Positions 10,720 through 53,996 are shown, counted from the whole stretch's first letter. The stretch: DNA of 63,988 bases, filler included, from Dimargaris cristalligena (GCA_003614675.1; 6 parts of 6 records of this genome joined end to end with filler, not necessarily neighbours in it), one strand, 5' to 3'. The notes: generated by a model not told the origin, from the sequence alone. Translations and numbers: made by a program.

Positions 10720-10819
10720 NNNNNNNNNNNNNNNNNNNNNNNNNNNNNNNNNNNNNNNNNNNNTTAATTAATTAANNNNNNNNNNNNNNNNNNNNNNNNN
10801 NNNNNNNNNNNNNNNNNNN
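10720..10819. other. Artificial contig linker (N44-TTAATTAATTAA-N44)
   Basis: 100-nt spacer with all-frame stop cassette; identical at five positions. Confidence 0.98.
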
Positions 10820-11130
10820 ATATACAGGGATAACTTTAGAGGGAGGTCCCAAGGGGAGGATATTACTAAGACTAAAGTAGAGGTAAATAAGCCAACTGGA
10901 CAGTTATGGGTATCCCAAAGACTCAGATGGTAAGTAAAAGAGTCTGATAGATCAGTGCTGGAGTAAATAGTGTAAATAAGTAGAGTCAAAAAGGTGAATA
11001 ATTATATAATAATGATAATCCTATAGTACTGGGTGTGGCTATGGGAAAGCTACTATGGCACTATAAGGCCTAATATAGTTAGATGTTGAATCTGGCTAGA
11101 TTAAGGAGTATTAGATAGTCTAATATATAT
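10820..11130 (-). mobile_element. Hypermutated LTR-like repeat, truncated at contig start; homologous to ~30378-30690
   Basis: TATACAGGGATAACTTTAGAGGGAGGTCCCAAGGGG...CTATAAGGCCTAATA aligns with TATGCAGGGAAAACTCCAGAGGGAGGCCCTAAGGG...CTATAAGGCCTAATA. Differences look largely like transitions. No CpG seen. Confidence 0.7.
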
Positions 11131-13203
11131 AGATATGTACTGAAGTCCCATAAAAAACATTTATTTACTTACTGTTACTTGTATTTTTTATCTACATTTA
11201 GAGTTTTTTTACATCCTTAAGCCAGTCTCACCTTACCCACAAGGCATAAGGCTCAGTACCCCCACATCCAGCAATTCCGACCTACTGGACGTGGAAATAC
11301 TTGCCGGTGGAGGGCCTACCTTTTCAATGGCATAGTATTCTAAAGAAGAGGCGAAGTTGCCCAGTATTAAGCACGTGTAACCTTACACAGCATGCCCTCT
11401 TCTAGGAGCCGCTGAGTCATTACTCACTACGCCTTTAAATTATATTGATGATCCTAAACACCTGGTCATATTGGAGGGCTATTGAACTGCGTGATTTATT
11501 GGATAGTACCCAAGGTGGGTTAGACGACCCGAGAAATTGGTACCTTTTAGGAAGCCCTGAGGATTGTGGCTTTATCGAACGTTCTTAATCCCAAAGTATA
11601 AAGTGCGGCTATAGTCGGTTACGCAAGAAACAATCCGGGAAAGAGGAAAACATGAGGGGGCGCCCCCAGGTGGTGGTTGATTTTTAGTAATAGGGGCCGT
11701 ACAAACTGACTTCAAATAGCAGAACAATAGTCCCCAATAGTGAAAGTATCCTGTTAGACGTGATATATTCCGACTTATACTTGTTATATTAACTATTTAG
11801 GGAGTTGGAGACTGGGTATAGACATACCGTTATGCTGTAGCTAACTGTAGTAATATACAGTGCAATATACTAGTTCGCTATAAAGTCACAGAATATAGCC
11901 ATTCTAAGTAGAAGTATCAATAGGATATTGCGAGTTGTAGCTAGGTTTGCTAAAGTAGCTTTCACCGGTTGGAGATCTCGAGAAGACCCAATTTGAAGGA
12001 TCGTTATATCCAGAGCTCTTCAGCTCAGTTGTACCACCCATCCGGTGAATAGAGTGTGAAGCTGAGGTACTCTGGAAGACTACTATTATTCCTTTTCGAG
12101 GGCATGCAATATATTTTTTGAGATCGCTTACTGAGAAGTACTGTATTAGTTTTGTTTCGGACCACGTCTGTACGCCAGCGAACCGTGGTAACTCCTACCC
12201 AATACACTATGGATATTGGAGGTATACAACCCTTAGAAAGCAGCGCCAATGGACTATCGGAAACATACAGTTTCCGGTAACGTATTCTTGAGTTAGTCGA
12301 GTATGTTCTAATCTTAGGCATTTAAAGGGGTTGCCTTTGGTCTAGACAAGCAGTGCGCCTCGTTGGTTGCAGGGTAGGTGTAATACTGGAAAACATCCTA
12401 GCACCAGCATCATCACTGATTCGTAAAACTATGCATCGGCCAACTTAGGAAGGTACCAGGCGATGTGTGAAAGGCATTGGGAGATAGAGAACCTTCAAAA
12501 GAATTTGACTTGTGCTTCCCAATGTACTGACCATTATAGAGCTACGGAGTCAGTATCACGGCACAAAATAGCACTAGTTAAATGCTGGCTATTTTATTAT
12601 TGCTGGTTCTGTGTGTAATCAATATTTCATGCCATGACCAACATACTGTCTATGACGACTCTGATACCTTCGCACTCCCTTTATCTTCTTCACACCCTTT
12701 ACCAGTCTCCCCGTCTGGGCCGCAATTTCCGATTTTAGCGCCTTGTTTTTCCCTGGCCCATTACCCATGGCCTTTATTAGCTGATACCTATTGGATTTAA
12801 AATGGAAGGTGGCACTAGGGCTCACCAAGTGGTTCGCTCTCTCGAGACCACCCAATATACGCCTCTGTAACATTTAAGCACTGTCTTGTACCGCAAGCTC
12901 CGTGAGTTTCTTTACAGCGTTTGTCATTGGAAAGGGAAACCTCGAGCTGTATATAGAGGCGGTTACTCGAATGGGCTGGCACGGTTGGGGGAAGGGTCAA
13001 GAGGGGAGGGGGCTCTCGGTTTTGAATAAAAGGCCCTAATCTAAGCCTAAATGTTTTACTGTCGCTGTATGCTATGCTCGTTTGCCACTAGTTGAACATC
13101 CTTAGCAGCCCACGCACCCCTGCATGGACTTGGGCCCAACCAACTTCCCCATTTAGTTTTTCTATTATTATATTTATTCACCCCTGCCCAACTATCCGAA
13201 AAC

Positions 13204-14671
13204 ATGCACTATTGGAGGTCTGTAAGTGTCCTGGTATTTGGTCGGATACTTCATCTCACCTATGCTGCCCCTAGTTTAAATATGGACGGGGTAAGTCAAG
13301 CAGCCCCACTTTCGAATCCCCCGGTTGACTTTACCAAGTCATTACCAAAGGAATTAGTCAGTATAATCATCGGATTATCGACCTTCCCAGACCACCTGTC
13401 ACTGCGCAGTACCTCACGATACCTGCAGAGGGAGGTCGACGATAACCCAGTACACCAGAAATTAAAGGCAAGTGACGCGAACCTCGCACCCCAGTACATT
13501 TACTGTCCCTCCCCTCCATCGCCCTCTCCTTTAAAAATATATAAAACTAAACATTATACTGTAGTCTGGGTCAATTATCCACCGATACTCGCCCATTCCT
13601 TTATTTACCTCAATGTACTGCACCACGGTATTCCGGGATGAAAATTGCGTAACCCATCTGACTCCATACTGGCGATAACCCTTTCAATAGCCCATGAGGA
13701 AAATCATGATTATCAATGGGGAAAAACTCACTGACGAACCCACCAGCGTTGAACAAAGGGCCGGGGCTTTAGTGGATCTCCTCTTGCCTAGTATCGACTT
13801 GTACCACATTGTCGCTGCTTTGGACCACTTCCGTATAAACGGGCTTACCCGCCACCAAGTGCTTATACCCGGTCAGTTTACCAACGACACCCCTCCCCGA
13901 CCTGTGGCGTTCAATCCCCATCGCTTCCTAAAAGGGTTAGCAAGCCTGACGATGCCCTATATGGATATTTTAAAACTCGACGATAAGCAAATGGGTGACC
14001 TGTTCCCGGCCTTGTATGCAGCCAAGCTGGGCCAGTGGGCCGAACTACGGGCGATGTTTCAGACGGCTACGCAGCCGAATATCGAAGCCACTGCCCAGCG
14101 TAATTTTCAAGGTCGCCGGCTGGTTTCCTCGGCTTTTTTGGATTTCCAGGGGGACTTGGATATGCGCACCGACGTAGTGGAGACGGTCATGGTGGAAATG
14201 ACGATGGTCCAAATCGTGGCGTATTTAGTGGCGGAGGGTCAGATCGGTGCCATGTTTGCCCTTCTGGAACAACTGAGACCCGAGTACCCTCAGTGTATGG
14301 CCTACTGGTTGCGCATAGCTGTGCTTCTGACGATGGAAACTGCGCAATACCACCAACCTAGCCATGAAACGTACGCCCGGGAGGGGGTGGAAGATGCGGT
14401 CGAATTCTATCGGGCTTGTGCCACACTATTCGGGCTGACCAAGGCGGCAACCGCGCTGGAGGCATTATTAGTGGATGGGGCGACGGAAACCGATGCCTTC
14501 GATTTAACCGAATGCTCTGACCTACTATACAATCCCCGACTAACGCACTTTGCGAGCTCACCCCTGACCCTTTTGTTTCGGTTCCCCACCTACCACTATT
14601 CCTCAGGTTCAGAGGCATTGGGGAATCTGCCAATCGTGGATAGCACCACTATACCCTTGGGTTCGCTTTGA
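13204..14671 (+). CDS. Signal peptide + F-box-like protein (exons 13204-13467 and 13691-14671; GC-AG intron), about 414 aa
   Basis: Signal-like MHYWRSVSVLVFGRILHLTYA-AP; F-box-like SLPKELVSIIIGLSTFPDHLSLRSTSRYLQREV. Donor AAG|GCAAGT and acceptor CTTTCAATAG|CCC are both phase 0. Helical C-terminal region with a degenerate ankyrin-like PALYAAKLGQWAEL. Confidence 0.7.
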
Positions 14672-15167
14672 ATCAAACTTATTTAATTGTTTCAACTTTA
14701 TCTCAGCTTTTACTTTCGCCTCGCGTCTTCATTATTCATAGCTATTTATTAAATTATGCCCTTTGGTACACCTCCAATATTTAGTCAATTGAAAAAATTA
14801 TGCCAGTGTGTAATGGTTGGAGCTAGAGTGGCGGTGATATATACATTGGTGGGACTATAGTGATGTACATAGAGCCAAAATCACTGCGTATATTTTTTTT
14901 ACTATAGTGAAGACAGGTCGCATTCAGTGCATTTCAAATAAATTCTCTCCATTTCTATCAAGGAATTCTCTTTGAACACTAAAAGTCACTAGTATTTTTT
15001 TTTCGCTTTCAACCTTCACCTAGTCTAACCTGGCTGTATATTTTCTCTTTTGTGCCGTTGGTTCCCCCATTCGTATTCTTTGTCGACGTAGCTTTTTCCG
15101 CCTTCCTACTGCTTGGCCCTCTCCCTCCTTCTGGCTCTCTTCCGCACCCTTATATTTTATTGACGCC

Positions 15168-16321
15168 ATGGGTCGACCCCAAATCAATCGACAGGAAGCT
15201 AAAAAGCCTGCAACTAAAGGCTCAGCCCAGGACAAGAGTCGGCCGAAGGGAAAACCAATGAAAAAAAGGAGTGTCGAGTCCACCAAGTCGTTATCGGATA
15301 TTAAACGGCGTGTCCGGGACCTCAACCGATTCCTAAGCCGACCTAACCTACCGACCGCCCAGCGCGAAGACCTCGAGCGTCAACTCCGGCCCCTTAACAC
15401 CCAACTCCGGGTCTTACAGTTCTATGCCGCCGAGAAGGCGAATGCTACAAAGTCCCACCGGATTCGGTTTTTGGGTAAGTATTTCCCATTGCATAGTATC
15501 CTTTATATGGCACCGGCTTAGTCTGCTAACGGGCCTCCCTGGACACCCGGGGTCGCTGTTCCTTCTGATGTATGCTATGTATGATATAAATCTAACTGCG
15601 TATCTACTGTATCTATAATGGGTGGGGGGATATCCTGGAATCGTTGAATCTCAATAGATCGCAAGAGAATCAACCGCCGGATCAAACAGCTCAACGCTTC
15701 AATCCAGGAATGCCAGGAAAGCGACGAAACCACCCAGAATGAATTGGCCTTGCAGCGCCAAGAGCTTGAGTTGAATTTGAAGTATATTGAAGTAAGTTCG
15801 GTCGCATCCATTCACGCCAGCCTGTCTTTTACGAACTTCCGTCACTAGCGACTGCCACATATGGGCTAAGTAGTGGCGATGGGCTAGTTCATTATTATAT
15901 TCATCTGCCTGATAGTTATTGGAACCTACTAGCCGACAAGCTCCGTCTCACTCATATCTACTTCCATCGGGACTATTCCATTATATAATTTACTACCAAT
16001 TAGCACTATCCCCATAATTTCCCGTATAAATCCATCAATACTGACGCCCCACTAGCGAAAAAACAGCAGGAAATACGGGAAGAGATTCGCACCGCCATCG
16101 AAAAGGGCGAAGTGTCCCTCTTGCCCGACAAACGCCTAGCGGCCTACCTTAGCCAAACCACTACCGCCACTACCCCAATCGATGCTCCGAGCAATACCAA
16201 CGACGCTGAATCCGGTAGCGGATCTGAAGAGCCCCTGCCCAAGGATACCCAAAAGGCTGCACTAAAAAGCTCCAATTTTTTCGCCACAGGATCTGACGAT
16301 GAATCTGATGACGATGCCTGA
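15168..16321 (+). CDS. EFG1: rRNA-processing protein Efg1 (exons 15168-15474, 15658-15791, 16004-16321)
   Basis: IKRRVRDLNRFL, HRIRFL-DRKRINRRIKQL and LNLKYIE-HYPHNFPYKSI match Efg1 motifs. Acidic tail. GT-AG phases consistent. Confidence 0.85.
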
Positions 16322-16717
16322 GGGATCTTCAATTGTAAGATTGGTATCACTGCCTAATTGTTTAAAAAGCGACCTATAATATCGTTTGCTTAGTCTCAAA
16401 ATCTACCCTAAAAATAAATCACAATGATGGCCTAGCACACACCAGATAGCAAAACTCCAGAGTTCTTTATCATGTTTCGCGCTAGAGTATATAGGTATCC
16501 CTGTATTTATTTCAGGGGATGAGTAGAAGTCTGAGATTGAATACAAAATTAAAGAAAATCAACGAAATAGGCGAGAAGCGTAGTTTATTACCGGTAGGGG
16601 TGAAGCGGGGGAACAGCCCGAAAGACCCATGTAATCTACTCTAAATAGAAAGAGGGGATGCCCGTAAACCCAGTATCTAAGGAACAGGTGATCGATGGCG
16701 GCGGCGAAAACCGGAAT

Positions 16718-17185
16718 TTATAGTTCATCCCGAGCCTTCTGTCTCTCGAGGCGCTTCTTCTCTTTTTTCATGTTGACGCGGCGCATAAAACTGATTCCGC
16801 CGCGAGTAGCAGGGGGTGGGAGATGGGCCGTAATAAGGTGTAAATATATCAACGACGCATAAATTAGAAATGACCCATAATACAATGACTTAGGGGTCGT
16901 TGCTGATCTAACTATTGCCCTAGGCGAACCGTCGATGCACATTTCTCGTCAATAAATACCAGTATTCTACTGGTATATAACTTACTCGTTGTGTTGGCAC
17001 AGCTCGTATTCGTGCTTCTCGTGCTTACAGGTCCAGGCCAGGAAGAAGTTGTCGTAGCGGCACCGGTTGAGGGGCACGAGCAGATGGGCACAGTAGTCGC
17101 GAACCTCCAAGGGGATGCGGTACTCGGCCAACTGCCGCTGGGTCATTTTCATCTCGGGTTCCTTGAAGGGATCTTCGGCCAACAT
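16718..17185 (-). CDS. NDUFB7: NADH:ubiquinone oxidoreductase B18 subunit (exons 17185-16986, 16790-16718)
   Basis: IPLEVRDYCAHLLVPLNRCR...CKHEKHEYELC twin CX9C motif; spliced continuation DFMRRV. Confidence 0.95.
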
Positions 17186-17952
17186 GGTGAACTAGATTGG
17201 GAGAGAAGCGGGGCAGGGTAGGGCCCATTGAATAGATATAAAACAACGTTAAGAGCCGGCGCTTTGGATTAGCAAATACGAATAGGGGCTGTGTACTGGG
17301 CTGACTGTGGGGTGCGATCCAGGGAAGTAGTTCGGAACTAGTCAACTTCGCCTACCTAGTACGGTTGGGGTCGGGGGTTAAATGCTACCGAAGGAAAAAA
17401 GACTAGAGACAAGTCACGTATAGGACAAGGCTAGAAAGGAAGGAGATAATACAAGGGTTAAATTAAATAATAGTGCTTGGATTGAGGGAGACCATGTGTG
17501 CATTGGAATCCCAATCCCTGAGCTTGGTCACTTTGAAACGGTGGGCGAGCTGTTCGTGAATCCGTGCAAAGCAGCTTCGCTGGTTCAACCAAATCCCTCG
17601 CATACAAAGGCTCATAAGCACTCCATGTCTCCCCCCCCCACCCACCCACACCTGTTCCATAATAATATTATCCCAGAGACTCAAACCTCCCTCCCCCTCA
17701 TTCATAGCTTTATCATGCTCGGGCTGGGCGATCAAGCGGAGAGACAGCACGCCAAGTTGAATTCAGTACCACGTGACATTTAGGACCTGGCCTCTGCCCC
17801 ATTTGCCTCCCTTCCCAACTTGGTTCTGGCATTATCAAATTAGCACAGTCTAGACTGGAATATGTTATTGAACTATATATAAGATATTCTCAAAGACTGG
17901 TATAAAAGTAGTAGTGACATTGGGGCCCAGGTTGGAGTTTGATTTATGGCGC

Positions 17953-20345
17953 CTAGTCGTCTTTCTCTGGATTGGGTAGCTGGTGTTTAATCGGTGGAAT
18001 GTAAAGATATTGATCATGAAATGCCCGGTCGTGCTTGGTTAGTGGCGGCAACTTAATAATTTTAAAATAATCTTCGGCGTGTTGGTTCAAGGCGATGGAG
18101 TATGGGGGAGGAAGATGCACAATAGAGAATCAATAATATCATAAGGAGTTAAGGATTACACACACGGCATGGGCATGTCATCGGAAACAGTACCCACTGG
18201 GTAAAGAGCGTGGATATATGGTGATATAGGAATAGCATGGGGTAACGTCCAAAGATACTGGCATTGCCCCCATCCCTCACTTGTCCGGATGGACCAGCCA
18301 AGTGAATAGAAATAGGGGTTTCCAAAAACATGGTCGATTAGTGTTAGCAAAAAGGTAGGATATTTTCTGGAATAACGGCCATTTTTGTAGCTCGGTGTTG
18401 CTCATTCTAATTAATATATAAGTTTAAACATGCAAGTAATATATAGCCGAGCATGGGTTAATGCCTACGATTAGTTAATTAGCCTCGTACTACCCAAAAT
18501 ACGTCGTATGCATGTATCCGGTAATTGGCAACATAATGGTCTATTCAACTATACCTATCAATGTAGCGCTGCAGGTTATTGCCAATGAACGCCACATGCT
18601 CCCATTTGTCGTCAACCAGGTTGGCTTCTAAGAGGTTGTGGTACATGAACCCTTCGCAATGAGGCATGTAAAATAGTGTAAGCCGATCTACTATCTGGCG
18701 ACAACTCTAAAGGCGGGAAAGAGGAAATGTATTGGAGGTACCCGGTTGCATAAAAATCGGTCGGCTCAGTTGAAGTGCGAATCGAAGTATCGAAGGGTCT
18801 TGCCGTACATATGTATGGTATTATCAATCGTCTCAAGTATGCATGGACTTGTGGGTCGCTTAATACCCCCAAGCTGTACTGAAAAGCGAAACACTCTTAC
18901 ATTGTTTTCCGTAATTACAGAATAGCCATACGACTTAATCGCTGCTTTTTCGATATTAGTGAACACGGGATCAAATGCGGACACCGAGCCTTGGATCTAC
19001 AAAGGGAATAGGGGAGGGCAGTAGAATTTGCCGCAGAGTTTGCTATAGGCTGGATTGAGTGTGCGTTTATTATGACTATGCTTTTTATAAATTCTTATAT
19101 AACCCAACACCAGCAATTACAAAGGCAATACAACTGTGGGCTCCAGTGTCCCATTCATATAAAACAAGTAAGAGTACATTCCGATATGCTTAGTATAAAT
19201 CAGAAATATTTAAACTGTCCTACCTTAGCGAGTGTTTCCAAGTGCCGAAGCAAAGCCATTTGCAACTGCGAGTCTTTGGAACTCCATAGACTACCGATAC
19301 CGAAACAAATAATATCATGAACCGGCAGTACTGGTGGGTCGTCCACAGCACCCAGGCCCGCTACTTTGAGTGCATCTATAAATCAGTAAAATCCCCCGTA
19401 GTAAACGAGCAGTTTAGTGGTCGACGAACTTTGTATATGATGGGTGCCATAATGGGGATGCTAATCCCGCGAAATAAAAATAGACAGTCTAACAATATGA
19501 CAATTATCTACCATACAATGTTAAAGTCCTTCTAGCGAAAGTAATGTCAGAGCTAAAAAAAGTGACAGTTTAATCGTACCTGTTATTTTTCCAAAATACG
19601 CACCGAGATCCTGTTCTTGACTAGTGGGATATAGCGGAATACCAACAATACACGCTCGGAGGTGGGGTTGTTTAATTCGACTATTAGGCAATGGGTATAA
19701 ACAATCTCTCCTAGAGAACGTGGGCGAAAGAATGCATAGTAATGTTTTAAACAAAAGATGCTTCACTCCCCCATTAGTTTTGAGAGACAGTGTCGTCTGA
19801 CTTTAGTCTCAGCAGAAATCAACTTACATTCGATTTATCATAGTTTCCCGGATATGGTTTACCGCCAGGTCGATTTGGGTTGGATCAGTCGTTTCGGGAT
19901 CTAAATCCAGCAGCTGTCGCCGAGCAGGGTCTAGTCGAAACCGATTTCCGCGCCGCTTGGCCGAACCGCGTGGTTTCCGGGAGGGGGAATTCGTGGGGTG
20001 GGAGGTTGTCCCCTGTAACGTAGGCAGAGGTTTGGTCTCTACGGTAGGGCTGAGTGTCTCTGCTAAACTCAACGGAAATGCAGCAAAGGTACGTAATAAC
20101 ACCGATGGTTAGTTAGACAAGGCCGAAAACATGTGAATGTGCGTAGGGGTGAACATGGGTATGTCCACACTGCACAGGGTTTTGGTATTTCAAGTTAGGA
20201 ACTCCGTTGCCGCTGTTGCTATTTCTAGGACCGCGACTCTACCTGATTGACCCGCGCATGGTGGGGTGCTTAGGGAGCCGGGGTTGGGTCGCCGACCAGG
20301 CCGTCGGCTACGTCGCCCAACCAATTTGAATCCGTCGTCTTCCAT
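17953..20345 (-). CDS. SRR1/Ber1-like (SRRD) protein, about 8 exons, mostly missed by the ORF track
   Basis: Manually joined exons give MEDDGFKLVGRR..., IICFGIGSLWSSKDSQLQMALL, AFDPVFT, TLFYMPHCEGFMYHNLLEAN, FIGNNL and AFHDQYLY, which are hallmark SRR1-domain motifs. The small exon near 19552-19512 is less certain. Confidence 0.85.
18079..18363 (-). other. Probable AT-AC (U12-type, minor spliceosome) intron
   Basis: Donor AAA|ATATCCTACCTTT, U12 branch TCCTTAAC at 18155-18148 plus CCTTGAAC close to the end, acceptor CAACAC|GCC. Phase 0 on both sides restores the SRR1 C-terminus. Confidence 0.75.
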
Positions 20346-21482
20346 TAGGGATCGTTCTAGGAATGACTCAATTGTCGAGCGAGGAAAATGTACTAGTGTA
20401 AAAAAGACAGTGGGATTTCAAAAGCGTTAGACGGGAAAGTCAGCTAGTAGTGGGCCTATCCCAGACACTGAGGGCGACAGGAATAGAATTCACTATTGTT
20501 ACAGGCCAGCTTGGAAAAATTAAAAATACAGCTGGCTGTAATAGTATCCCCTGGTGGGTGGTGGCATAGTACCTGAGGAGTCTCTCGCTTGTAACCCAGT
20601 AAAGTATAATGGCAGACTACCTAGCTGCATATTTCATGCTGAGGGCAACAAGCGTTAAGGGCCATACATGCTAACATAAATTCTACAAATAGAAACAATA
20701 GCAGGACTTAATTACCATTAGCTCATTCAATTAATATCTCAGTTATGCATGGGTTTTTTTTGGAAAGGAGGAAGACATAGTTTGGATACAGGAACAATAG
20801 CCTAGAGAATCAATAGGGATGGATTGCCCTATTTGGGCTTAGTTGATCGAGAATGTCATTTGGAACATCTCTCCAACAAGCCCGCTCTAGGCCACGGCAT
20901 ATCTGGGCAATCGCCAACCCGTTATTGAGAAACACATTGTTTTCCAGTCAGTGGTGAGCCGGGGTTCCTTTTACAGCCCGATAGTGATGGATCCAAGCAC
21001 ACCAAGCGTGCGGTATTGTCTGAGCTACGTTTGCCTGAAATTAGAACGACCTATAATGCCTTAGGCTATCTAGTTGGCCATTGTCTAAATGAGTGAATAG
21101 TGCGGATGGATTCTTCCGAGTAAAGGTGGCCTGTAAAGCAATTCTCCGAAATAGGGTCGAGGGGACAATAAGGCTAGCATGCCTGACGTGAATGTTGTCT
21201 ATTGTATACTAATCCTGACTAGTTTGCTTGATTCGCTGTACACCGCGATACGGTGAAGGGTGGACAATGCAATCCATGAATTAATCGATGTCTGCCATAT
21301 TCCCCGAAAATGTATAAAAGAGACTTCCTTGGTGTCTCCTTAGCTACTCATCAAATTATCAGCAACCTGCCCATTCGCAATACCGAGCCATACACCACTT
21401 ATATCATCATCTTCTACCACTTCCCAGTTCTTCTCTTCTCCGCCTCTTTACCAAATTACCAACCCCCCCTTCACCACCAACC

Positions 21483-21528
21483 ATGCTTACCAACTGGATT
21501 TCTCTTGTCACTTTGGCCTTGGCCACGC
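21483..21528 (+). CDS. 5' fragment of a probable secreted protein, cut by contig end
   Basis: TATAAAA near 21313, pyrimidine-rich leader, ACCATG and a signal-like MLTNWISLVTLALAT. Confidence 0.5.
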
Positions 21529-21628
21529 NNNNNNNNNNNNNNNNNNNNNNNNNNNNNNNNNNNNNNNNNNNNTTAATTAATTAANNNNNNNNNNNNNNNN
21601 NNNNNNNNNNNNNNNNNNNNNNNNNNNN
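21529..21628. other. Artificial contig linker
   Basis: N-TTAATTAATTAA-N, 100 nt. Confidence 0.98.
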
Positions 21629-21811: not shown

Positions 21812-22294
21812 ATGAAGGTCATTGCTGCCGCCGCCTCCCTTTTCCTCTTCGCCGCTTCCGCCGCTGCTCTGACTGACGAGCAAATGGCTTGCCTGGGCGA
21901 GTCCGTGTGCGACCGCAAGGGTCAGACTTGTCTGGCTGGTTGCTTTGGTATGAGCGACGATGTTTACAAAAAGACCCAATCCTGCTTCCTGAAGTGTAGC
22001 TCCTCCACCGACGACTGCTCCAAAAAGTGTAACCAGGATATGGAAGACACCATGGGTGCCACGATTGACGAAATCGACGTTGCTTGGGATGATGTGCACA
22101 GTGGCAAGTCCTCCAACAAGGGTGCCAACGCCTCGACCGCCAGCACGGCCGCCACCAAGACCAACTCCGATGGCACCACCCCTTCCGCCGATGAGTCCGA
22201 TGACAGCTCCAGTGCTGCCGCTGCCGGCTCCGCTGGTGTCCTGACCGGTTCTCTGGCCGTCGCTGCCCTGCTCGCTTCCCGCTACATGGCCTAA
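21812..22294 (+). CDS. Secreted 8-Cys domain, Ser/Thr-rich, GPI-signal surface protein, paralog 1
   Basis: Signal peptide; C-x5-C-x6-C-x3-C-x13-C-x3-C-x6-C-x3-C; S/T/D linker; hydrophobic C-tail; TATAAAA near 21631; strong codon bias. Confidence 0.9.
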   Translation: MKVIAAAASLFLFAASAAALTDEQMACLGESVCDRKGQTCLAGCFGMSDDVYKKTQSCFLKCSSSTDDCSKKCNQDMEDTMGATIDEIDVAWDDVHSGKSSNKGANASTASTAATKTNSDGTTPSADESDDSSSAAAAGSAGVLTGSLAVAALLASRYMA

Positions 22295-26825: not shown

Positions 26826-27395
26826 ATGAAGCTTTCTACCACCGTCGTTACTGCTGCCGTGTTTGTCATGGCCTCCGCTATGCCCGCCCTGGCCGCTTAC
26901 ACGCAAGAACAACTCCAGTGCATTACAGGGGACGGCTGCTTCGACACGGAGGATTTTTGCAGGGAGAAGTGCCTTAACATTAGTCAAGATCAATTTAACG
27001 ACTGGACGGTTTGCTCCGATAAGTGTACCGACGATATATCGGGTCCCTGCACCCAAGCCTGCAACTCTCAATTTGAAAAAGCCACTGGCTTCTCCGTTAA
27101 CGACCTGAGTAAATTATCGGAGGCCGCCATGAAAATCTTTCTTGGGGACGAGGAGCCGCCCTCCGTCTCCGTCTCCGCCTCACTGACTACCGCCAGTACC
27201 AACGCTCCTTCGACATCGGCCCATCCCAGTAGCTCCAGCACCCCTCCCTCGGCATCGAAAACGGGCAGCAGTGTTCCTTCGTCCAACCAGTCCAGCGATA
27301 GCAGTGACGACGACGAATCTAGCGGTGCGAAGGCCCTGACCGTTATTCCCGGTACCCTGATTTCGGCTGCTCTTCTCTCTTTTTATTTGCAATAG
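26826..27395 (+). CDS. 8-Cys GPI-type surface protein, paralog 3
   Basis: MKLSTTV... signal peptide, AYTQEQLQC, 8 Cys, S/T/P linker, ESSGAKAL...hydrophobic tail. Confidence 0.9.
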   Translation: MKLSTTVVTAAVFVMASAMPALAAYTQEQLQCITGDGCFDTEDFCREKCLNISQDQFNDWTVCSDKCTDDISGPCTQACNSQFEKATGFSVNDLSKLSEAAMKIFLGDEEPPSVSVSASLTTASTNAPSTSAHPSSSSTPPSASKTGSSVPSSNQSSDSSDDDESSGAKALTVIPGTLISAALLSFYLQ

Positions 27396-28718: not shown

Positions 28719-29354
28719 ATGAAGCTTTCAGTTGCCGCCATCGTCCCCTTCATTCTGGTCGCAGCCGGTCCCGGCCGGGCCAGCTATACCCAAGACCAGC
28801 TAAACTGTACTCTGGAAAACGCGTGCATCAACGACCCGTACTTCTATCTGGATAAGTGTTTCGGTCTAACCAGCGACCAATACACCACGCTCACCGATGG
28901 CATCAATAAATGCGATACTCTCACTGACTCTAGCAAGCAGCAGTCCTGCTATGACGATAGTGAGAGCCAAGTTGAGGACTTGACGGGGGTGACACCGGAT
29001 GAACTTAACGAGATGGTTAATATCGGCATGGGAAAAGCAGCGTCGGAAAATATTAGCACTTCCTTGAACTCAAGCGTCAATAACCAAGCCACTTCGCCAT
29101 CAGTCGACTCGGGCAATACCACCAAGTCGGGGTCCAGCGCTGAGCCGACTGCCACTCAAACGGCCAGTGGGTCGTCGTCGTCCAGTCACGTGGTCTCGAG
29201 GTCGTCTGTGTCCAACCAATCGGCTACCCGATCTTCTTCAGCGAGCCAGACGGGTACTGACGATAGCGAGGACCAGTCCGGGGGTGCTGCTGCCCAAGCT
29301 ATGATGCCTGCTTTGTTGGTTTCGACTGCCATCCTATCCTATTATCTGCGATAG
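28719..29354 (+). CDS. Cys-domain GPI-type surface protein, paralog 4 (5 of 8 Cys retained)
   Basis: SYTQDQLNC start of domain; C3>Y, C5>G, C8>S; S/T linker; GPI-like tail. Confidence 0.9.
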   Translation: MKLSVAAIVPFILVAAGPGRASYTQDQLNCTLENACINDPYFYLDKCFGLTSDQYTTLTDGINKCDTLTDSSKQQSCYDDSESQVEDLTGVTPDELNEMVNIGMGKAASENISTSLNSSVNNQATSPSVDSGNTTKSGSSAEPTATQTASGSSSSSHVVSRSSVSNQSATRSSSASQTGTDDSEDQSGGAAAQAMMPALLVSTAILSYYLR

Positions 29355-30894: not shown

Positions 30895-31440
30895 TTAAGG
30901 ATGAAGCAATAGAGTGATACTGATTATTGCCATAGGCAGCACCATGATGGGAATATTAGTGCCCCCAGAGTTGAAGTCAAGACCTGAGGAGGATACTTCA
31001 TTACCCATGGGTGTGGCTGGCTTGGCTGGTTTTAAGTCAGTATCTATTGCAATAGAGTTGCCACCACCCAATGAGGGACCAGAGGTATTAGCCAATACTG
31101 TACCAGTTGCTTTCATTTTTGTCATGGCTGAAACAGATAAAGCTACACCTGGAACTTCAGTTTGGAGGGTAGTGATATCAATATTGAGAACCTCATAGAG
31201 GTCATTCAGACATTGCCGAAGGCAATTATGCTGGTCAATTAGGGAAGTCTTAAGCAAACACCCTTCACCACACCTGTTTTCCTGGTCCAGTTGATTAGCT
31301 GTGGCACCATAGCAGTTGACAAGGCATTTCTCAGAGTTGACTTCACAGTCAACCTTCTGAGCACATTGGGCCTACTCAAAAGTGAGGGCAGACATGGTAG
31401 TGAGGAAGGCCAAGAGGGTAATTAGCAATGCTGCCTTCAT
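30895..31440 (-). pseudogene. 8-Cys GPI-type surface protein, paralog 5, with premature stop
   Basis: MKAALLITLLAFLTTMSALTFE*AQCAQKVDCEVNSEKCLVNC...CGEGC...CLRQC...hydrophobic tail. TAG at 31374-31372 replaces the family-conserved Gln. Only one CpG seen in the gene. Confidence 0.88.
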
Positions 31441-32336: not shown

Positions 32337-32436
32337 NNNNNNNNNNNNNNNNNNNNNNNNNNNNNNNNNNNNNNNNNNNNTTAATTAATTAANNNNNNNN
32401 NNNNNNNNNNNNNNNNNNNNNNNNNNNNNNNNNNNN
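32337..32436. other. Artificial contig linker
   Basis: N-TTAATTAATTAA-N, 100 nt. Confidence 0.98.
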
Positions 32437-33630: not shown

Positions 33631-34849
33631 CCGTTCATTTTTTTCAGCGCTGTTTTACTTCTCATAACCCCCGCTACCTTGGCTAGACCACAGGTAACTC
33701 CCGATGCTCAAAAGACAGAACTTACAGCTTCCCAGTTGACCGATATTGAGACCCATGCCTAGTAAGTAAGACCCTGTGGTACGGAGCCTTGGACAGCCGG
33801 CGTGAGTGTGCCATATCCAATGGGCAATTCAGCTAATAGGCTGCCATTTATCTAGCCCATCCCAGCTACGCTAGACCATCCTTTCAATAGTGCAATTAAA
33901 GTAAAACTAATTTTATTACACATCCAACCCCACTGTCTCCCCGCACATAGCTATGCAATGGCTGCCTATGAGGATGCCAGCAAGTGGAACTGTAAAAATT
34001 GCGTAAGGGGTACAGAGGGTACCCAATTCATACGTGAGTTTTCAAGGGCACTTTCGTCGGTGCGGTGGTTCGTGGCCTTGAATATACGGGACAAATCCAT
34101 CATTTTGAGCTTCCGTGGCTCTACCCAAAACGATATTGGAACATTTATCACCGACTTAAATTTCGAGTTTAAACAATGGCCGCCGAACGTACCTGCATCG
34201 AAAGTGCACGAAGGCTTCATCGAATCTATGCTAAAGGGCATCCTTCCGGCGATGACTACTGTTAAGGAACAGCTGGCCGCCCACCCAGACTTCAAAATAA
34301 CAATTGTGGGGCACTCGCTCGGTGGAGGTAATTGATTGTAAACCGTTCTAATTGTTTGAATTCGGACACGGTTTTGCATTCTCACTTACCCCCTTTCATT
34401 ACCGAATGAGTCCATTGGCCCTAATCATTCATTATTGACCTGTCTATCCTACTCCTATTACATTATTGATTTTTGAATGTTCAATAGCCCAGTCTGTGCT
34501 CGCGGCGACCTATATATGCGTCTATAGTCCCCATTGGAAATCTAGACTCCGAGTGTTTACGTACGGCGAACCGCGCGTGGGCAACCTGGTGTTTGCGCAA
34601 TACTACGACTCTCTTGGTATCCCCACCCAGCGCGTGGTCAATCGAAACGACATTGTAGCCCGCGCTCCGCCCAAGGCTCTGGGCTACCGCCACCACGGCT
34701 CCGAGGTATGGCTTCGAGCATCGGATGGGCTCGCCATCTATTGTCCCGGGCAACTGCCCCTGGAAAGCAAGGAGTGTAGTGACGGGGTGGAGACCCTCAA
34801 ATACAGTATGACTGACCATTTTAACTACTTGGGTGCCACATCTCGCTAA
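33631..34849 (+). CDS. Secreted class-3 lipase (exons ~33631-33761, 33951-34327, 34488-34849; start codon not located)
   Basis: SFRGS, VHEGF, GHSLGGA, TYGEPRVGN, NRNDIV and DHFNY motifs; signal-like FFSAVLLLITPATLA. Confidence 0.88.
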
Positions 34850-36283: not shown

Positions 36284-37861
36284 ATGCGGGTAAGTATACC
36301 TCGTCAAGTATGTTATCAGACCCTGTATTTCAAACCCCAATTCCATTGCAGTAATTAACCCCACCACTTTTCGGTGACCCGTCCAGAGTAAAGCCCAGGT
36401 TCACAAGTCATTTCCTAACTCGCCACGAGCATAATCAATTGGATATGGTCTGTATTTCATCTTTTTATTCTCCATAAATCCACTTTTGTAGAGTCTTTGC
36501 CGTATTATATTCGTGCTCTTCAGCTTGACTTGGCTGGTGTCCAAGGAAATGAGTGCTGCTCCTACCAATGTCATCACCACTGCACCTGCTCCTTTAGACC
36601 CAATTACCAGTACTACTGTCTCGACAGACTCCGCGGCGACTGGACTTCCTCCGGCCTCGAAAAAAGTTGTCCCGGTGATAAAAACGGTTACAGTCCGTGC
36701 AGCTCCAACTCCGACCCCAACTCCGGCTACACCCACCAGTACCAGTACTGCTAGCCCGACTTCGCAGCCAGCCCCTCCACCCCCTACTTACCCGCCTCCT
36801 GTTGTAACTTCCAAGGGACCTGGTACACTTACTCCTGAAGATATTACTAAGTTAAAAGACTATGTCGAGTAAGTATTCTGGTTGAATGAGGTAGTCAACT
36901 GTTCATTTTTTTATAATGTAGCCTGTTCCGGAGAGAATAGATTCAACTATACTATGGCCTGACCTAGAATATATATATACCATATTTTGACCTGAGTCTA
37001 ACCACTTGAACTTGGAACTTGGCGACCTTGTTGCACCAACACCTTTATTCTACTCTTGTACTATCTGCAATTTGGCCATCCCCGTCGTGAATTACTTAAA
37101 CTGCCAGTTACGTATTTGCGGCCTATCGTATCAACAGTATGGAAAACCGGGACGTCCTCCTCAAAGGAACCGGTACTCAGAGTGCGCAGCTGGAGTACGT
37201 GTTTCATAACGCGGAAGAACCGACCTTCAACGGTTACATTGCAACCGACCCCAAAACCAAGGTGATTGCCGTAGTCTTCAGGGGCTCGTCCACCACCGAC
37301 GACCTGGAGACGGTACTGGACGTCAAGCGGGATAGTTGGCCCGTGGGTACGGGTAGCGAGATTTACGGCGGGCCCCTAAGCGGTTACCAGACCCATGGCG
37401 CTGCCCTCGTCGCTGAGCACCAAAAGCTAGTGACCAAGTACCCGGACTACCGGTCGGTGATTACCGGCCACTCCCTAGGGGGGCTGCACGCCATGATCTA
37501 CGCGTTCGATAACTACGGCAAGTTAGGCCCGGCGCCCTGGGAAGTAATCACCTTCGCCTCCCCCAAAATCGGGAACCCCGAGTTCCGGCAGTTGTGGAGG
37601 GCCAAGGACATCCCCGTGGCCCGGGTGGCCAACCTCAACGATGCGGCCATTCACTGGCCCCTCTTGAGCTACAGCTTTTGCCATACCGGTCCCCCGATTG
37701 TGATTGACTCGGAAAGCAACCAGACTTACGCGTGTGCGGATGAATCAACTCCGGGCTCGCCCAATGCCTGTCTGACCCAGAAACGTAAAATGCGGGCCAG
37801 TCTCTCGGCCCACGGGTCATTCTGGGGCAACGACGGATCGCAGTTCGGACCTAAGGCCTAG
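36284..37861 (+). CDS. Secreted class-3 lipase with Thr/Pro-rich N-terminal linker (exons 36284-36289, 36492-36868, 37108-37861)
   Basis: 6-nt first coding exon ATGCGG|GTAAGT; signal peptide; VFRGS, GHSLGG, TFASPKIGN, NLNDA and SAH motifs; phases consistent. Confidence 0.88.
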
Positions 37862-43131: not shown

Positions 43132-43231
43132 NNNNNNNNNNNNNNNNNNNNNNNNNNNNNNNNNNNNNNNNNNNNTTAATTAATTAANNNNNNNNNNNNN
43201 NNNNNNNNNNNNNNNNNNNNNNNNNNNNNNN
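43132..43231. other. Artificial contig linker
   Basis: N-TTAATTAATTAA-N, 100 nt. Confidence 0.98.
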
Positions 43232-43304: not shown

Positions 43305-45819
43305 CAACGACGATATAATTTTTTTACACCCTTATATGCTGCCAATACCATTGCCCAACTCTATACTGGAAGCCCTTTATTAAGCGGATCGATCCACTTT
43401 TGTAATAACTACACCACTCTCTCAGTGACGCTCGCTGATCTGCCACATTGTCTGGGTTCATGAGTAGGGCCTCAAATGAACCAGTTCAATGTTACGTAAT
43501 GTATATTACCAATCAGTTATTTGAAAATGGGTATAGGATTATGTGCGTGGTTTAATCGACTCTATCGCCAAAGTGTAAGCATTGATGCGTAAAATCACCT
43601 AACCAGAATAATTATGGTCTTTAACATAGCAGTATTCCCCTGGACCCTGACAACAAGTATTGGCTGGAATCTAACCAGGATTCATTCCACAGTACCCTGA
43701 CCAGCTAAACCCGAGCGCCAACAGCTCTCGCTTCCCCTGAGCCTCTTCGGGCAAAACACGGCAGCAATCAACAGGGGCATCATACTGAGACTTGACTGTT
43801 ATATTGCGCGGCCATCGGAGACCCTGCCCACAATTAATAATATAATTGTGACCTTTGTATATCATGAACTTATATTGATATATCACCTCTTGATGTATCA
43901 CCAGCGGGATATTTCTTGCATTACAGGGTTAGCGCGAGGTGAAACTCGACACGATTTGCCCAATAATTTTATGCGAGTTTGTCTAAATTCCACTCCCTCC
44001 CCGCTTGCTAGACTATCATCAGGTTCCCCGACCGTCGACCAAGACTAGCGTGATGTATCTTGATGGCTAAGTATTAGGATTCGGTGTCGATTGGATGAAT
44101 TGGGAAGCACCACCCTAGTCACACCACCTCTGCCTGTAGCTGGATAATGAGGCCAGTTTTGCCTCTTTTCACAAATGTTTGAGCCTGCCCAATCATGGTT
44201 GAAATTTAGATGGTCCATTCGGCGGAGTTGATCCATCCAAAGGAACCGATGTAATCTTTGCCGACAAAGAAAGAGAGCCGTCAATGGATCCACCACAGCG
44301 CTGCTCTTTCCCCCAGTCCCTTCCCTCCTTCCGCCCCCGCCTTTTGGTGGTCCTCTTTAATACTGGTTCAGCTGGCCATGGCATTGCCCATCAGGTAGTT
44401 AGGTGGGTTGGTTAGTTGGTGGGCGCTATTTTCGGACACTATGGAGTGTGACCACCATTTCTGACTCTTAAATTACCTATTGGTTTACATTATGATATTC
44501 AAAGTCTGCCCAGCGGCTATTAATATCCGCGAATGATATGTAGGGGGGGTTAAGGGTGTTCAAGAAAGGGTATTTTCTATGGGCACCCGTCCCTCGTCCT
44601 TGCCCGCCACCTCCCTCTTTCTTGACCACAGCAAAGACCAAGGTGCTGCGTATCAATTCCAATTGAGGGAGTTGTCAGCCCTGATCTATGCTTCCGTTTC
44701 CACCACTGCCACCACCACCGGGAGAACTATATAGGTTCTCCTCCCTGCTCACTCCATAACACGGTTTATTTTGCTCCCTGGGCGTATACAATCGAATCCC
44801 GGTATTTTATTTATTTATTTGTGTTATCCTCTGCTTTTTAATACAATTCTCTATTCCAACTGAACCTGCCTCGTTATTACCCTCCCTACCTCGTTTATAA
44901 TTAATATTTTCGATAATTCACCCTAAAAGTTTACGTGCCTCCTAGTACCGAGCCCCTTTTTAGTATTATATATCACTGGAGTGCGACCATTTTCTCCTTC
45001 CGTTTTAATTGCATAGGAAGGCCCGGCCTATCTAAATTTGCTTGTTACCAATAGTGCCATCTAGGAAACTCTTACCCCTCTTAGTTTGCACCATTCCTGG
45101 ATTTCTAGTACATTAGTTTACTCGTCATCTGACTGTTGTTCGCCCGGCTTCATAACTGAGCAGTGCCCTATTGGAGAGCACCGAAAACTATTTGTTTACA
45201 GAGTGTGTCACTTCTCTGCATCGATTCGCTAGCTGTAGCCTAACAACGCCGTAATCAGTCAACGTTGCCCGCCCAACCCCTGAGTGAATGGTAGGATATT
45301 AGTCTTTTATAATCGATTGATGAACCCTGTTCGAAACCTTGCCCCCTATTTTAACAGCCCCTTAATATGGGTGTAAACCGTGGGGTATAAATCTTTAACC
45401 CGCGCGCCTTCGCTGTAGGCCATGCTCTCTTTTGTCTCGACTTGCTTCGTTAACACTTCGTTGAGCTACGTTAGTGCTAAGATCCCAATCTAACCCTTTC
45501 ATTTATCTAGTGTTCTTTAACTCAATTGATACGGCCGGCTATTAGGATCAACCGGCGATCGGTCCACATTCATATTGGCTCGCTCACCACACCGTAGTAT
45601 CTTAGCATCACCTTGCTTTCCCTACTTTGCCTACACCAATCCTTTTGGAGTATCCTACCTTTTATCCCACTACCCACCCCCTCCTTCGATCGCCCCCACA
45701 GACCGCTTCCCTGTTCTCTGAGCAGTCGATTTGGGCTACTTCATTGGTGGGCTTTTGACGTTCATCCCCCCACCCCTTCATTTTCCAACGAAGTCGCATA
45801 TTCGGGGTCGTTTATAATA

Positions 45820-48800
45820 ATGACCTGCCATACTTACGCCCCACCTGTCCGATCGTGCAGCATGAATGGCGGTGCTCCAGACCTCTACAACCGGAGGCAC
45901 GGCCAAGATAACCGGGCATCGAATATCGCGGAGCTAGATTTAAGTGAAAATCTCCGGTCGGCCAATATAACCGGGGGTATTATATCCGCCTGGGGTTGGA
46001 AAACCTCCCTCTTCAACTTTTATAAACGGCCGATTGCCGCAGTGGTCCCGACCGTCACCTTCCAGGTGTACCCGGACTTTGAATCGTGTGTCAGCCTTGC
46101 CTATCCCCTGGAACGGCGGGTTGTGGCGACCATAGTGCAGCCCACCGATGGCGGCCAATCCCTTGGCGGCTCCAGCGGGAGTGACAGCGACCGCGATACA
46201 GGAGCGGCCTTTATCCCTTCGCACCGAGGGTCCCTAGTGACCGCCGCTGCTATCCGGCCAACCATATCCTCTGGCCTGCCACCATCTCGGAACGGGAGGA
46301 CCCTCCAGGTCAGCCTGGAAGAGTGGCTACTGAGTGAAGGAGTCAACCAACCGCCTCCGCCGCGGTTGCGCGGCTCTATAAAATGGTACAACCCCCACAG
46401 TTGTCAATGGCAAACGAAAATAGTGATTTTACAACGCGACACGCTCACCTGCCAGGACTTTGTGCATAGGACCCGAGCGAGGAGGCGCCAACCCAAAGCT
46501 CTACTAGTCTCCCCAACGGACGAGCCCCGTAACCGTAGTAAGGGGGCCCGAATCATGCGGCTATTCCACAAAGAAGCAGGTCAACAAGCCCAACCACTCC
46601 CGCCATCCCCATTATCACCACCAACACCACTACGGCTCCGGCGTCTACGACGACTATCATCCCAGCTACCTCATCAGGCGGCTTCGCCTTCTCTTCCTTC
46701 GGCTTCATTTAATCCAACCAAGAAGCGCGGCGGCGGCGGAGAAGAAGTTGACAAAAAAAAGAATCCCCCACTAGACTCTTCACTGGGTTCCCAGTCCCCC
46801 GACGACTCCAGTACTACTACTACCGCCTCATCATTATCCTCCCCATCCCCGCCCCTACTACTTCAGGACCGTGGCCCTCGGCGGACTATAAAGACCCGTG
46901 GTGGCCCGCCTGGTCCACGCGGCGGTCCTGGCATTCCTTTTCCTTCGGCCGATTCTCTTGCTTCGCCATCAGCAGCTAATATTCGCAATTCTCCTTCTTC
47001 TCTAAATTCTTCAACTACGGACTTGGATCGTTCGGCCACTTCCCCACTTTGGGTCATCCATCTTACGATGATCAAGTCCCTTTCGTTCTTACCTGACGAG
47101 GGGGGACCCCCGCCTTCTTCCAAGGCAACCACCACCACCACTACTAGTCCCAAATCCCGCACCAACCCATATACTATTGATATTGCCACAACGGATGGGC
47201 GGACCGTATCTTTGGCCACCAAAACGAAAGCGCAGCAGCTTAAATGGGTGGTGGCCATTATTTCCAATTGGGACACTTATTTTAAGCTCCGCATGGACCT
47301 GCAGGCCGCCATGCCCGCTTCATTGGACGAAGAGCTCGCCCCCCTCGACCTAGCCCATGTTGCCCCCCGCGCGCCTGCCCAACCCCTACAAGGTCTACTG
47401 GGCGAATTACCGGTAGTCCACGATGCTCACGACATGGCTAATTCGACCCCCTTTCCCTTGCAGAGAGTTTCTTCGCCCACTGCTACGGGTTCAGCCGAAA
47501 TGGCCCATCCCGGCCCATTGAACCTCTCATTCAGCAATATGTGGCGGGAACTGGTCATTGACTCCATCCTTGCGGAAAGTTGTGTACGTATAACCTCGGC
47601 CTGTCCCATGAAGCGCCAAAAACGAGTGGAGGGTAGTAGTAGTGACCACCACCTGTCCTCCCCCGCCACCCTCCAGTTGGAGTCAAAAGGTCCCGTGACC
47701 CATAACAATTCAGAATCAGCCCTCAGGGCCCCGACTGAGGGGTCCAAGCCAGTTTCACTATTTCCTATTTCTGCACCCTCCATTTTACCCAACGCCGTTA
47801 ACGACGACGACCACCACCACCACCATCAATCCCTACGTCTGCAGTCATTTTGCGATCCCTCGGATGTCGTGGATATGTATGAGTTGTTGGGCGTTCCCTC
47901 TCCTGCTTTGTGCCATGAACCCTCCACTCTTTTGGCCTCCTCCAGCTCACCTAACGAACTGTTTGCCTTGGAAGGCCGTCGTTCCGTTCGGCAGGCCCGT
48001 CGTATGAGTCTCCCGGCGGCCGCCCTCGACCCCCTCTTTGAAACGGTGGCCCATGTTACCAAAGATGAGGATGACGACCACCCTAGTCTAAACGACTCTG
48101 AGACAATGCCACGGGCAGACTATACGACCCGTAAATATCCCGTCGGGGCGATTAGTTCTAGCTCCGCCGCTAAGTATGCCGGCGGTCCCCCGGTGACGTT
48201 GGCGGACCTACCCGAAAACGAACTAGTGTACCAGGACATTGTCGTGGATGACGACCTCACTATAACACTACCTTCGCCCATTGATACCTCATTCGCCCAC
48301 CAGGCAGTCACTCGCGGTCCGGCGTCGGCCCGCCCCGCCCTTTCGCGGGATGTGAAACTTCGTACCAAGCGACAGTTCTCTTTACCGGACCGCGGGACGC
48401 CCTTCATTATCCCCATTCTAAAACATTGGGGACCAAGTCTCGACAACTCCGAGGACGGCCACGACCTGCCTTCTCTCGTGGGGGACCTGGAGGGCGAGAC
48501 CCCCACGGCCCTCCAGCATTGCGAAATCGATGACCTGCCGCTCATCCCGAACGGATTTGCCCAGTTCCGCCAGCCTGACGGGAAGGAAGAGGGGGACGAG
48601 GGAAGCTTGGATTGGCGTAACCGGCGCATTCTGGATTGGCAACGGGAGGCCCAGAATCAGACAACTCCCCAACAGTACGCCAACCATTTGGTGCCGACTA
48701 ATAAGGTCGGCGGCCCCAACCCTTTGGACGCCTACCGGGTCATGGTACCGGACTTTCGCGCGATTTATAAAAGTCGACTGGAACACAACCTTAACAACTC

Positions 48801-53896: not shown

Positions 53897-53996
53897 NNNN
53901 NNNNNNNNNNNNNNNNNNNNNNNNNNNNNNNNNNNNNNNNTTAATTAATTAANNNNNNNNNNNNNNNNNNNNNNNNNNNNNNNNNNNNNNNNNNNN
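53897..53996. other. Artificial contig linker
   Basis: N-TTAATTAATTAA-N, 100 nt. Confidence 0.98.

Follow-up and report, generated by a model that had tools for sequence, protein, structure and literature searches.

The gene at 13204-14671 of the window, as the whole 63,988-nt stretch of DNA analysed here is called, raises the question of whether it encodes an F-box protein and, if so, whether such a protein would act within the fungus that makes it or be delivered into a host. The sequence-only reading had favoured the second view and had supposed a fungal, possibly mycoparasitic source. In a protein word search, the ORF at 13691-14668 was found to be 100% identical to the Dimargaris cristalligena hypothetical protein H4R33_006744 (355 aa), a sequence also deposited as BJ085DRAFT_31764; the two public 355-aa models have the accessions KAJ1974843.1 and RKP34535.1. 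The gene is real, and this identity bears out the fungal source, while the supposed mycoparasitism agrees with the description of the Dimargaritales as mycoparasitic in the accessible part of PMC9866270. The features of the gene are collected in Table 1.

Paired runs of 44 N, 12 bases apart, recur about every 10.8 kb in the window (10720-10819, 21529-21628, 32337-32436, 43132-43231 and 53897-53996), which consequently appears to be assembled from separate pieces of ~10.7 kb and is not one contiguous stretch. Genes on different pieces are therefore not to be read as neighbours. The orphan gene sits in the piece 10820-21528 (10709 bases), and its true genomic context is that piece only. An adaptin ORF is cut at 53896, at the edge of the last pair of N runs.

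Table 1. Features of the orphan gene of D. cristalligena, with positions counted from the first letter of the window
Feature	Position	Strand	Basis and remarks
Signal-like hydrophobic N-terminus	13204-13269	+	Hydropathy measures
Exon 1 of the public 355-aa model	13204-13290	+	29 codons, MHYW...NMDG, ATG at 13204; deposited protein compared with the window
Further perfect GTAAGT hexamer in exon 1, possible decoy or alternative donor	13222-13227	+	Phase 0; enumeration of in-frame single-intron models
In-frame ATG, Met27	13282-13284	+	As start, would yield an F-box protein lacking the hydrophobic segment; sequence and translation
GTAAGT donor of the public models	13291-13296	+	Intron 13291-13690, 400 nt
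Putative continuation of exon 1 (59 codons, intronic in the public models)	13291-13467	+	Open and in frame with exon 1; coding-like GC, ambiguous codon usage
F-box-like domain LPKELVSIIIGLSTFPDHLSLRSTSRYLQREVDDNPVHQ	13339-13458	+	Residues 46-85 of the long reading; Pfam and ESM Atlas
Proposed GC-AG intron, 223 nt	13468-13690	+	Phase 0; stop-free join to exon 2 giving 414 aa
Exon 2, orphan helical domain of 326 codons, and stop	13691-14671	+	TGA at 14669-14671; 100% identity to the deposited protein
Weak TPR-like helical hairpin, sole repeat-like signal	14210-14323	+	TPR_14, 17.2 bits, E 0.0082, cut-off 23.5

The locus had been read as contiguous. The part of this view that stands is that 13204-13641 is open in one frame, translating to MHYWRSVSVLVFGRILHLTYAAPSLNMDG... 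and then ...SLPKELVSIIIGLSTFPDHLSLRSTSRYLQREV..., and that the ORF 13691-14671 comes next. Both public predicted gene models, on the other hand, remove 13291-13690, the very excision which the sequence-only reading had named as speaking against itself, and comparison of the deposited protein with the window places the entire F-box-like stretch inside that intron. Retention of the F-box consequently requires another intron, an unannotated GC-AG intron at 13468-13690.

F-box domains have a consensus with an LPxE(L/I) start, conserved hydrophobic positions and a part of the form ...LR..S+xY/W.... The translation carries LPKEL...I...L...L.LR..SR.Y, and a near full-length alignment was obtained: the 59-aa piece 13291-13467 alone scored 16.6 bits with F-box (PF00646; E 0.0078, profile positions 3-42 of 43) and 15.3 bits with F-box-like (PF12937; E 0.017), while inside the 145-aa ORF the scores were 14.1 and 13.1 bits respectively. 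Both families have curated gathering cut-offs above these values (20.5 bits for F-box and 24.3 bits for F-box-like), so that the piece stays below the score for membership in either. The match was compared with control ORFs consisting of 149 stop-to-stop frames of 70-109 aa, drawn at random from 154 in the same window. None of the 149 matched F-box or F-box-like. Any family at E <= 0.1 was matched by 14 of them, three of which resemble genuine exons belonging to other genes (RRM_1, SRR1 and CN_hydrolase), and a single chance-looking match, DUF4222 at E 0.0037, was better than E 0.0078. The F-box match is above chance expectation and non-random, though below cut-off.

The ESM Atlas features of 13282-13467 gave a first match of 0.93, in a cluster that is 100% F-box and Ascomycota, and a second of 0.91, with 20 of 30 matches in the F-box family set and a recognition of 2660 against a mark of 2300. 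Shuffled proteins reach a first match of at least 0.9 in 4-10 of 100 cases, and the first match has 143 of 256 features in common, a count typical of chance matches or of distant relatives. The Pfam and Atlas evidence rests on the same ~60 residues and is not independent. A single-sequence AF2 model of the first 88 aa contains helices at residues 49-59, 67-79 and 82-86, at a confidence too low for the model to carry weight (pLDDT 56.5). The F-box proposed earlier is upheld as a near full-length, non-random Pfam match with an ESM Atlas counterpart, while it falls short of both Pfam cut-offs. A second F-box-like motif (LLLPSIDLYHIVAALDHF), spotted by eye where exon 2 begins, was without Pfam support at E <= 10 and was set aside.

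It was then of interest whether 13291-13467 has the properties of coding DNA. Past the annotated donor, no stop interrupts the exon 1 frame for 116 codons, which was matched by 67 of 20000 dinucleotide-preserving shuffles of 13291-13690, and the 59 open codons up to 13467 were matched by 1161 of 20000. Of 3752 start points on the two strands of the intergenic DNA upstream (10820-13095), 198 were followed by at least 59 open codons and none by at least 116. Two more stretches are open, namely 57 codons at 13468-13638 and 36 preceding the ATG at 13204; these have to be put down to chance by the GC-AG model and count against it. The GC content of 13291-13467 is 0.48, above that of all six heuristically inferred introns (0.356-0.44), with 0.525, 0.39 and 0.525 at codon positions 1, 2 and 3. 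This high-low-high pattern is shared with exon 2 (0.586/0.405/0.613) and with nine long ORFs of the window (0.58/0.465/0.582), and is lacking in 13468-13638 (0.509/0.421/0.439). By GC at the three codon positions, 13291-13467 is coding-like.

Codon usage was scored as log-odds trained on 4834 codons, and the scores were compared with those of 460 coding windows and 261 open non-coding windows. With 0.004 bits per codon, 13291-13467 lies at or above 10% of the coding windows, and its score is reached by 8% of the non-coding ones, an ambiguous verdict which is not decisive; 13468-13638 is non-coding-like, with a score of -0.091 (2.6% and 29.5% respectively). A THEG4 match (E 0.002) in the Pro/Ser-rich part of 13468-13638 was taken as a compositional artefact. 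On this evidence 13291-13467 quite probably codes, or recently coded, for an F-box.

For the splicing of such a stretch, single-intron models with an uninterrupted frame over 13204-14671 were enumerated (44 in all, 25 of which were listed). Among the 25 models listed, three donors are consensus-like, each of them in phase 0 relative to the acceptor that ends at 13690: TCT|GTAAGT at 13222, giving 332 aa, GGG|GTAAGT at 13291, giving 355 aa, and AAG|GCAAGT at 13468, giving 414 aa. The last is, among those same models, the sole consensus-like donor downstream of the F-box, and its context is that of a textbook GC-AG intron, the chief non-canonical splice class in fungi (PMC7072748, in its accessible part). 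The intron it would open uses the acceptor of the public models, CAATAG ending at 13690, with the branch-like CTGAC at 13658-13662, signals that serve the public intron together with its GTAAGT donor. Introns inferred in the window by heuristic joining of Pfam-supported ORF pairs (seven) measure 56-334 nt and have mostly GTAAG donors; length is non-discriminating, as 223 and 400 nt are both compatible with this heuristic range. Other arrangements were rejected. For a 76-nt intron at 13615-13690 the donor, GTACTG, is poor, and the exon before it would include 13468-13614, which scores non-coding; none of 14 in-frame two-intron models retains the whole F-box with good signals; and removal of 13222-13274 as a 53-nt intron would disrupt the frame, as judged by eye.

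The reading closest to the databases takes the public annotation to be correct: 13291-13690 is the intron, the 355-aa protein consists of a weak signal-like N-terminus followed by an orphan helical domain, and the F-box-like stretch is intronic and untranslated, its likeness being due to chance or inherited from an exon that has since been lost. It has the agreement of two deposited models, a perfect donor hexamer of the GT-AG class to which 98.7% of fungal splice sites belong (PMC7072748, in its accessible part), introns in this DNA that by heuristic joins seem normally long and mostly begin with GTAAG, Pfam F-box scores below cut-off, and a codon usage of 13291-13467 that is not clearly coding. 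The two depositions may not be independent of each other. The accessible main text of the single-cell-genome paper on D. cristalligena describes annotation by the JGI pipeline and contains neither 'transcriptome' nor 'RNA-seq', so that the public models may be pure predictions; predictors that prefer GT-AG would plausibly take the upstream GTAAGT at 13291, which would account for models without the F-box. Against the annotated intron are further the 116-codon in-frame open run (p ~0.003), a near full-length F-box in exactly that frame, which is very unlikely in non-coding DNA (0 of 149 controls), a GC content of 0.48 above that of all six inferred introns, and a length of 400 nt that exceeds all seven inferred heuristically. 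Correctness of the public annotation consequently appears rather unlikely.

Both splicing outcomes would be reconciled if the gene had alternative 5' splice sites, in which case the GTAAGT at 13291 and the GCAAGT at 13468, perhaps with 13222, would be joined to one acceptor to yield a short form without and a long form with the F-box, of which the short one could be a competitor of the long one for substrate binding. The two perfect GTAAGT hexamers (13222-13227 and 13291-13296), separated by 69 nt and each in phase 0 of one and the same frame, may as a pair point to such sites. Over the whole window GTAAGT has a density of 0.29 per kb per strand, which makes two within 90 nt unusual, and the three consensus-like donors of the models listed (25 of 44) all share one acceptor at phase 0, leaving open frames of 332, 355 and 414 aa. 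This coincidence of phase was, on the other hand, noticed after the fact, and such alternative use of the donors is judged improbable.

The orphan gene thus probably carries a divergent F-box that is excised as an intron by the public models. In the reading preferred here, the gene is lineage-restricted and its first exon would be longer than annotated, running from 13204 (or 13282) to 13467, where the GC donor AAG|GCAAGT would close it, and the 223-nt GC-AG intron 13468-13690 would lead to exon 2. The predicted product of ~414 aa, or ~388 aa from Met27, would consist of a divergent N-terminal F-box (residues 46-85) and an orphan all-helical, possibly TPR-like domain. From the observed sequence features and statistics we infer use of the GC donor, binding to Skp1 and the place of action: the F-box is predicted to dock on the Skp1 of an SCF (Skp1-Cul1-Rbx1) ubiquitin ligase while the helical domain would select the substrate, by default in the fungus's own cytoplasm or nucleus. 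F-box proteins are mostly ordinary intracellular SCF adaptors, and an endogenous adaptor is therefore the default reading. The combination of GC-AG splicing with a working endogenous SCF adaptor is given a probability of about 0.5. Weighing against it are the use of the perfect GTAAGT at 13291 by both public models, which drops the F-box; the rarity of GC-AG introns, given that non-GT-AG combinations of every kind account for ~1.3% of fungal splice sites in total (accessible part of PMC7072748); the two perfect GTAAGT hexamers (13222 and 13291) that would be left unused inside an exon; two Pfam scores below their curated cut-offs, with Pfam and Atlas not independent; and the want of homologues in the searches below, the ambiguous codon usage and the N-terminal pLDDT of 56.5.

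In its layout the long product would resemble the fungal F-box only proteins (PF00646 / PF12937), which are SCF substrate receptors: the ~40-aa N-terminal motif with LPxEL is alike, a C-terminal domain of no known family comes next, and the nearest ESM Atlas clusters are those of Ascomycota F-box proteins. The orphan protein differs from them by its sub-cut-off scores, by having no sequence relatives, by the hydrophobic N-terminus before the F-box and by the absence of the F-box from the deposited models. With the GC-AG introns that gene predictors miss, the locus shares the consensus donor AAG|GCAAGT, its use here being putative.

The domain encoded by exon 2 offers few clues to a substrate. 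A helical C-terminal region with one ankyrin-like motif had been described from the sequence. The AF2 model of the C-terminal part is indeed an all-helical chain, which makes the first element plausible, but at very low confidence (pLDDT 37.8). The ankyrin-like motif was not recovered: no ankyrin family was matched at E <= 10 by the whole ORF or by four sub-pieces of it, and the same pieces gave no LRR match in Pfam. No Pfam family reaches threshold in the C-terminal domain. The TPR_14 match of Table 1 (13.8 bits in the whole-ORF scan) is a single stretch at 17.2 against 23.5 bits, where TPR membership would take the gathering score and several copies. In the ESM Atlas, the best match of the exon 2 ORF was 0.82 with a recognition of 1643, which is chance level.

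The searches for relatives are consistent in that the locus is restricted to the D. cristalligena lineage. Among 1.84 billion representatives, phmmer found no relative of the deposited 355-aa protein but itself, and the exon 2 ORF found only itself in the protein word search. Searched against longer proteins, the 88-aa N-terminus matched the deposited 355-aa protein alone, through exon 1, and the 62-aa F-box piece matched nothing at E <= 10 among 17 candidates. The PDB sequence search with the 88-aa N-terminus gave 0 matches at E <= 10. Within the window, tblastn and blastn returned only the gene itself, plus two short DNA matches at E 0.11. No paralogue family or expansion was found in the protein databases or in the window.

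Secretion was examined through the N-terminus, MHYWRSVSVLVFGRILHLTYAAPS, for which a signal peptide had been claimed. Eight uncharged residues (SVSVLVFG) lie between R5 and R14, and the best 15-residue Kyte-Doolittle mean is 1.48. Three neighbouring genes of the window with evident signal peptides have means of 1.95-2.43 and uncharged runs of 17-25 residues. By this short core and this crude hydropathy measure the signal peptide could not be confirmed, and the N-terminus appears only weakly signal-like. The sequence TYA|AP fits the -3/-1 rule. The first 27 residues contain four basic ones (K/R/H) and no acidic one, the first acidic residue being D28, and we infer that such a segment would equally fit a mitochondrial presequence. 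A start at Met27 (ATG 13282) would give a protein beginning MDGVSQAAPLSNPPVDFTKSLPKEL... and organised as intracellular F-box proteins usually are. Upstream of the gene, a 72-codon ATG ORF at 12582-12800 (+) has a very hydrophobic signal-like start (MLAILLLLVLCVINISC), which shows that such N-termini arise easily in this DNA.

Given the normal nature of F-box proteins, secretion is not the default reading. It would require that the long form be made and its signal peptide cleaved, and that the F-box protein be secreted from the haustorium into the Mucorales host, where binding to host Skp1 would lead to the degradation of host proteins. The concept of a parasite-encoded F-box plugging into the host SCF is shared with Ralstonia RipG/GALA, Agrobacterium VirF and Legionella AnkB. 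VirF and AnkB are bacterial F-box effectors, the latter with ankyrin repeats. According to the accessible part of PMC4617103, RipG7 is a type III effector with an N-terminal F-box and a C-terminal LRR domain that interacts with Arabidopsis SKP1-like proteins, and SSGP-71 is a secreted F-box-LRR family of the Hessian fly, whose members typically have LRRs and interact with host Skp proteins, their repeat-like C-terminus being thought to choose the host targets. The likeness to SSGP-71 (PMC4617103, same part) lies in a eukaryotic parasite, a secretion signal, here putative and weak, with an N-terminal F-box, and a repeat-like C-terminus. The differences are that SSGP-71 is a family with LRRs, whereas the D. 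cristalligena gene is a single orphan with no LRR and a weak signal; that RipG7 is exported as a type III effector and not through a eukaryotic signal peptide; and that no counterpart of the LRRs of RipG7 or of the ankyrin repeats of AnkB was found in the D. cristalligena protein. An expanded paralogue family with LRR or ankyrin repeats, as in secreted F-box effectors, was found neither among the 1.84 billion representatives nor in the window or by Pfam.

In favour of a secreted effector it may be said that the organism is a mycoparasite, that the gene is lineage-restricted, as many effectors are, that no other in-frame ATG of the ORF precedes the one at 13204, that TYA|AP satisfies the -3/-1 rule, and that secreted eukaryotic F-box effectors exist in SSGP-71 and an interaction with Arabidopsis SKP1-like proteins in RipG7/GALA7 (both in the accessible part of PMC4617103). 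These points are opposed by Arg14, which interrupts a hydrophobic core weaker than that of the neighbours' signal peptides, by the equal fit of the basic, acid-free N-terminus to a mitochondrial presequence, by the Met27 start, which would dispense with the hydrophobic segment, by the lack of a paralogue expansion like that of SSGP-71 or GALA in the protein databases and the window, and by the intracellular nature of most F-box proteins. Among the results obtained here it is the lifestyle of the organism alone that would speak for the secreted-effector reading, which is considered very improbable. A full-text search of the literature for D. cristalligena together with F-box found nothing, and titles and abstract openings among the listed matches on F-box effectors and Skp1 contained no secreted fungal F-box effector. 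If true, a D. cristalligena F-box protein secreted into the fungal host to recruit host Skp1/SCF would, to our knowledge, have no predecessor among described fungal effectors as an F-box mimic.

At present the firm outcome is a modest one, a probable error in the annotation of an orphan gene. Should the GC-AG model hold, the deposited D. cristalligena proteomes miss an F-box through an assumption about splice sites, domain counts and effector screens made on those proteomes would inherit the error, the gene being hidden from proteome-based effector screens by an F-box annotated as intron, and re-annotation that allows GC donors could uncover further cases. If the product were also secreted, F-box mimicry, known from bacteria and a gall midge, would extend to fungus-fungus parasitism, and binding to host Skp1 would offer a concrete handle on how the haustoria of Dimargaritales manipulate their Mucorales hosts.

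Other genes of the window may be mentioned. Four paralogous small proteins are encoded in a cluster on one piece, at 21812-22291 (+), 26826-27392 (+), 28719-29351 (+) and 30898-31371 (-), those after the first being 18-29% identical to it. They belong to no Pfam family, three have a clear signal peptide, and the architecture common to all four comprises a domain in which five Cys are invariant, a linker rich in Ser and Thr, and a hydrophobic tail at the C-terminus resembling a GPI-anchor signal. As candidates for secreted or surface proteins of this mycoparasite they are better than the F-box-like orphan gene. Tandem class-3 lipase genes (Pfam Lipase_3) are found at 33856-34846 (+) and 36492-37858 (+), the first being split by an intron of ~160 nt. 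An open frame of 895 codons at 54119-56803 (+) with RT_RNaseH, integrase zinc-binding and integrase core domains is an LTR-retrotransposon pol that appears to be intact over that stretch. At 45598-49773 (+), within the most GC-rich part of the window (~0.56), lies an open frame of 1392 codons that matches no Pfam family at E <= 0.001.
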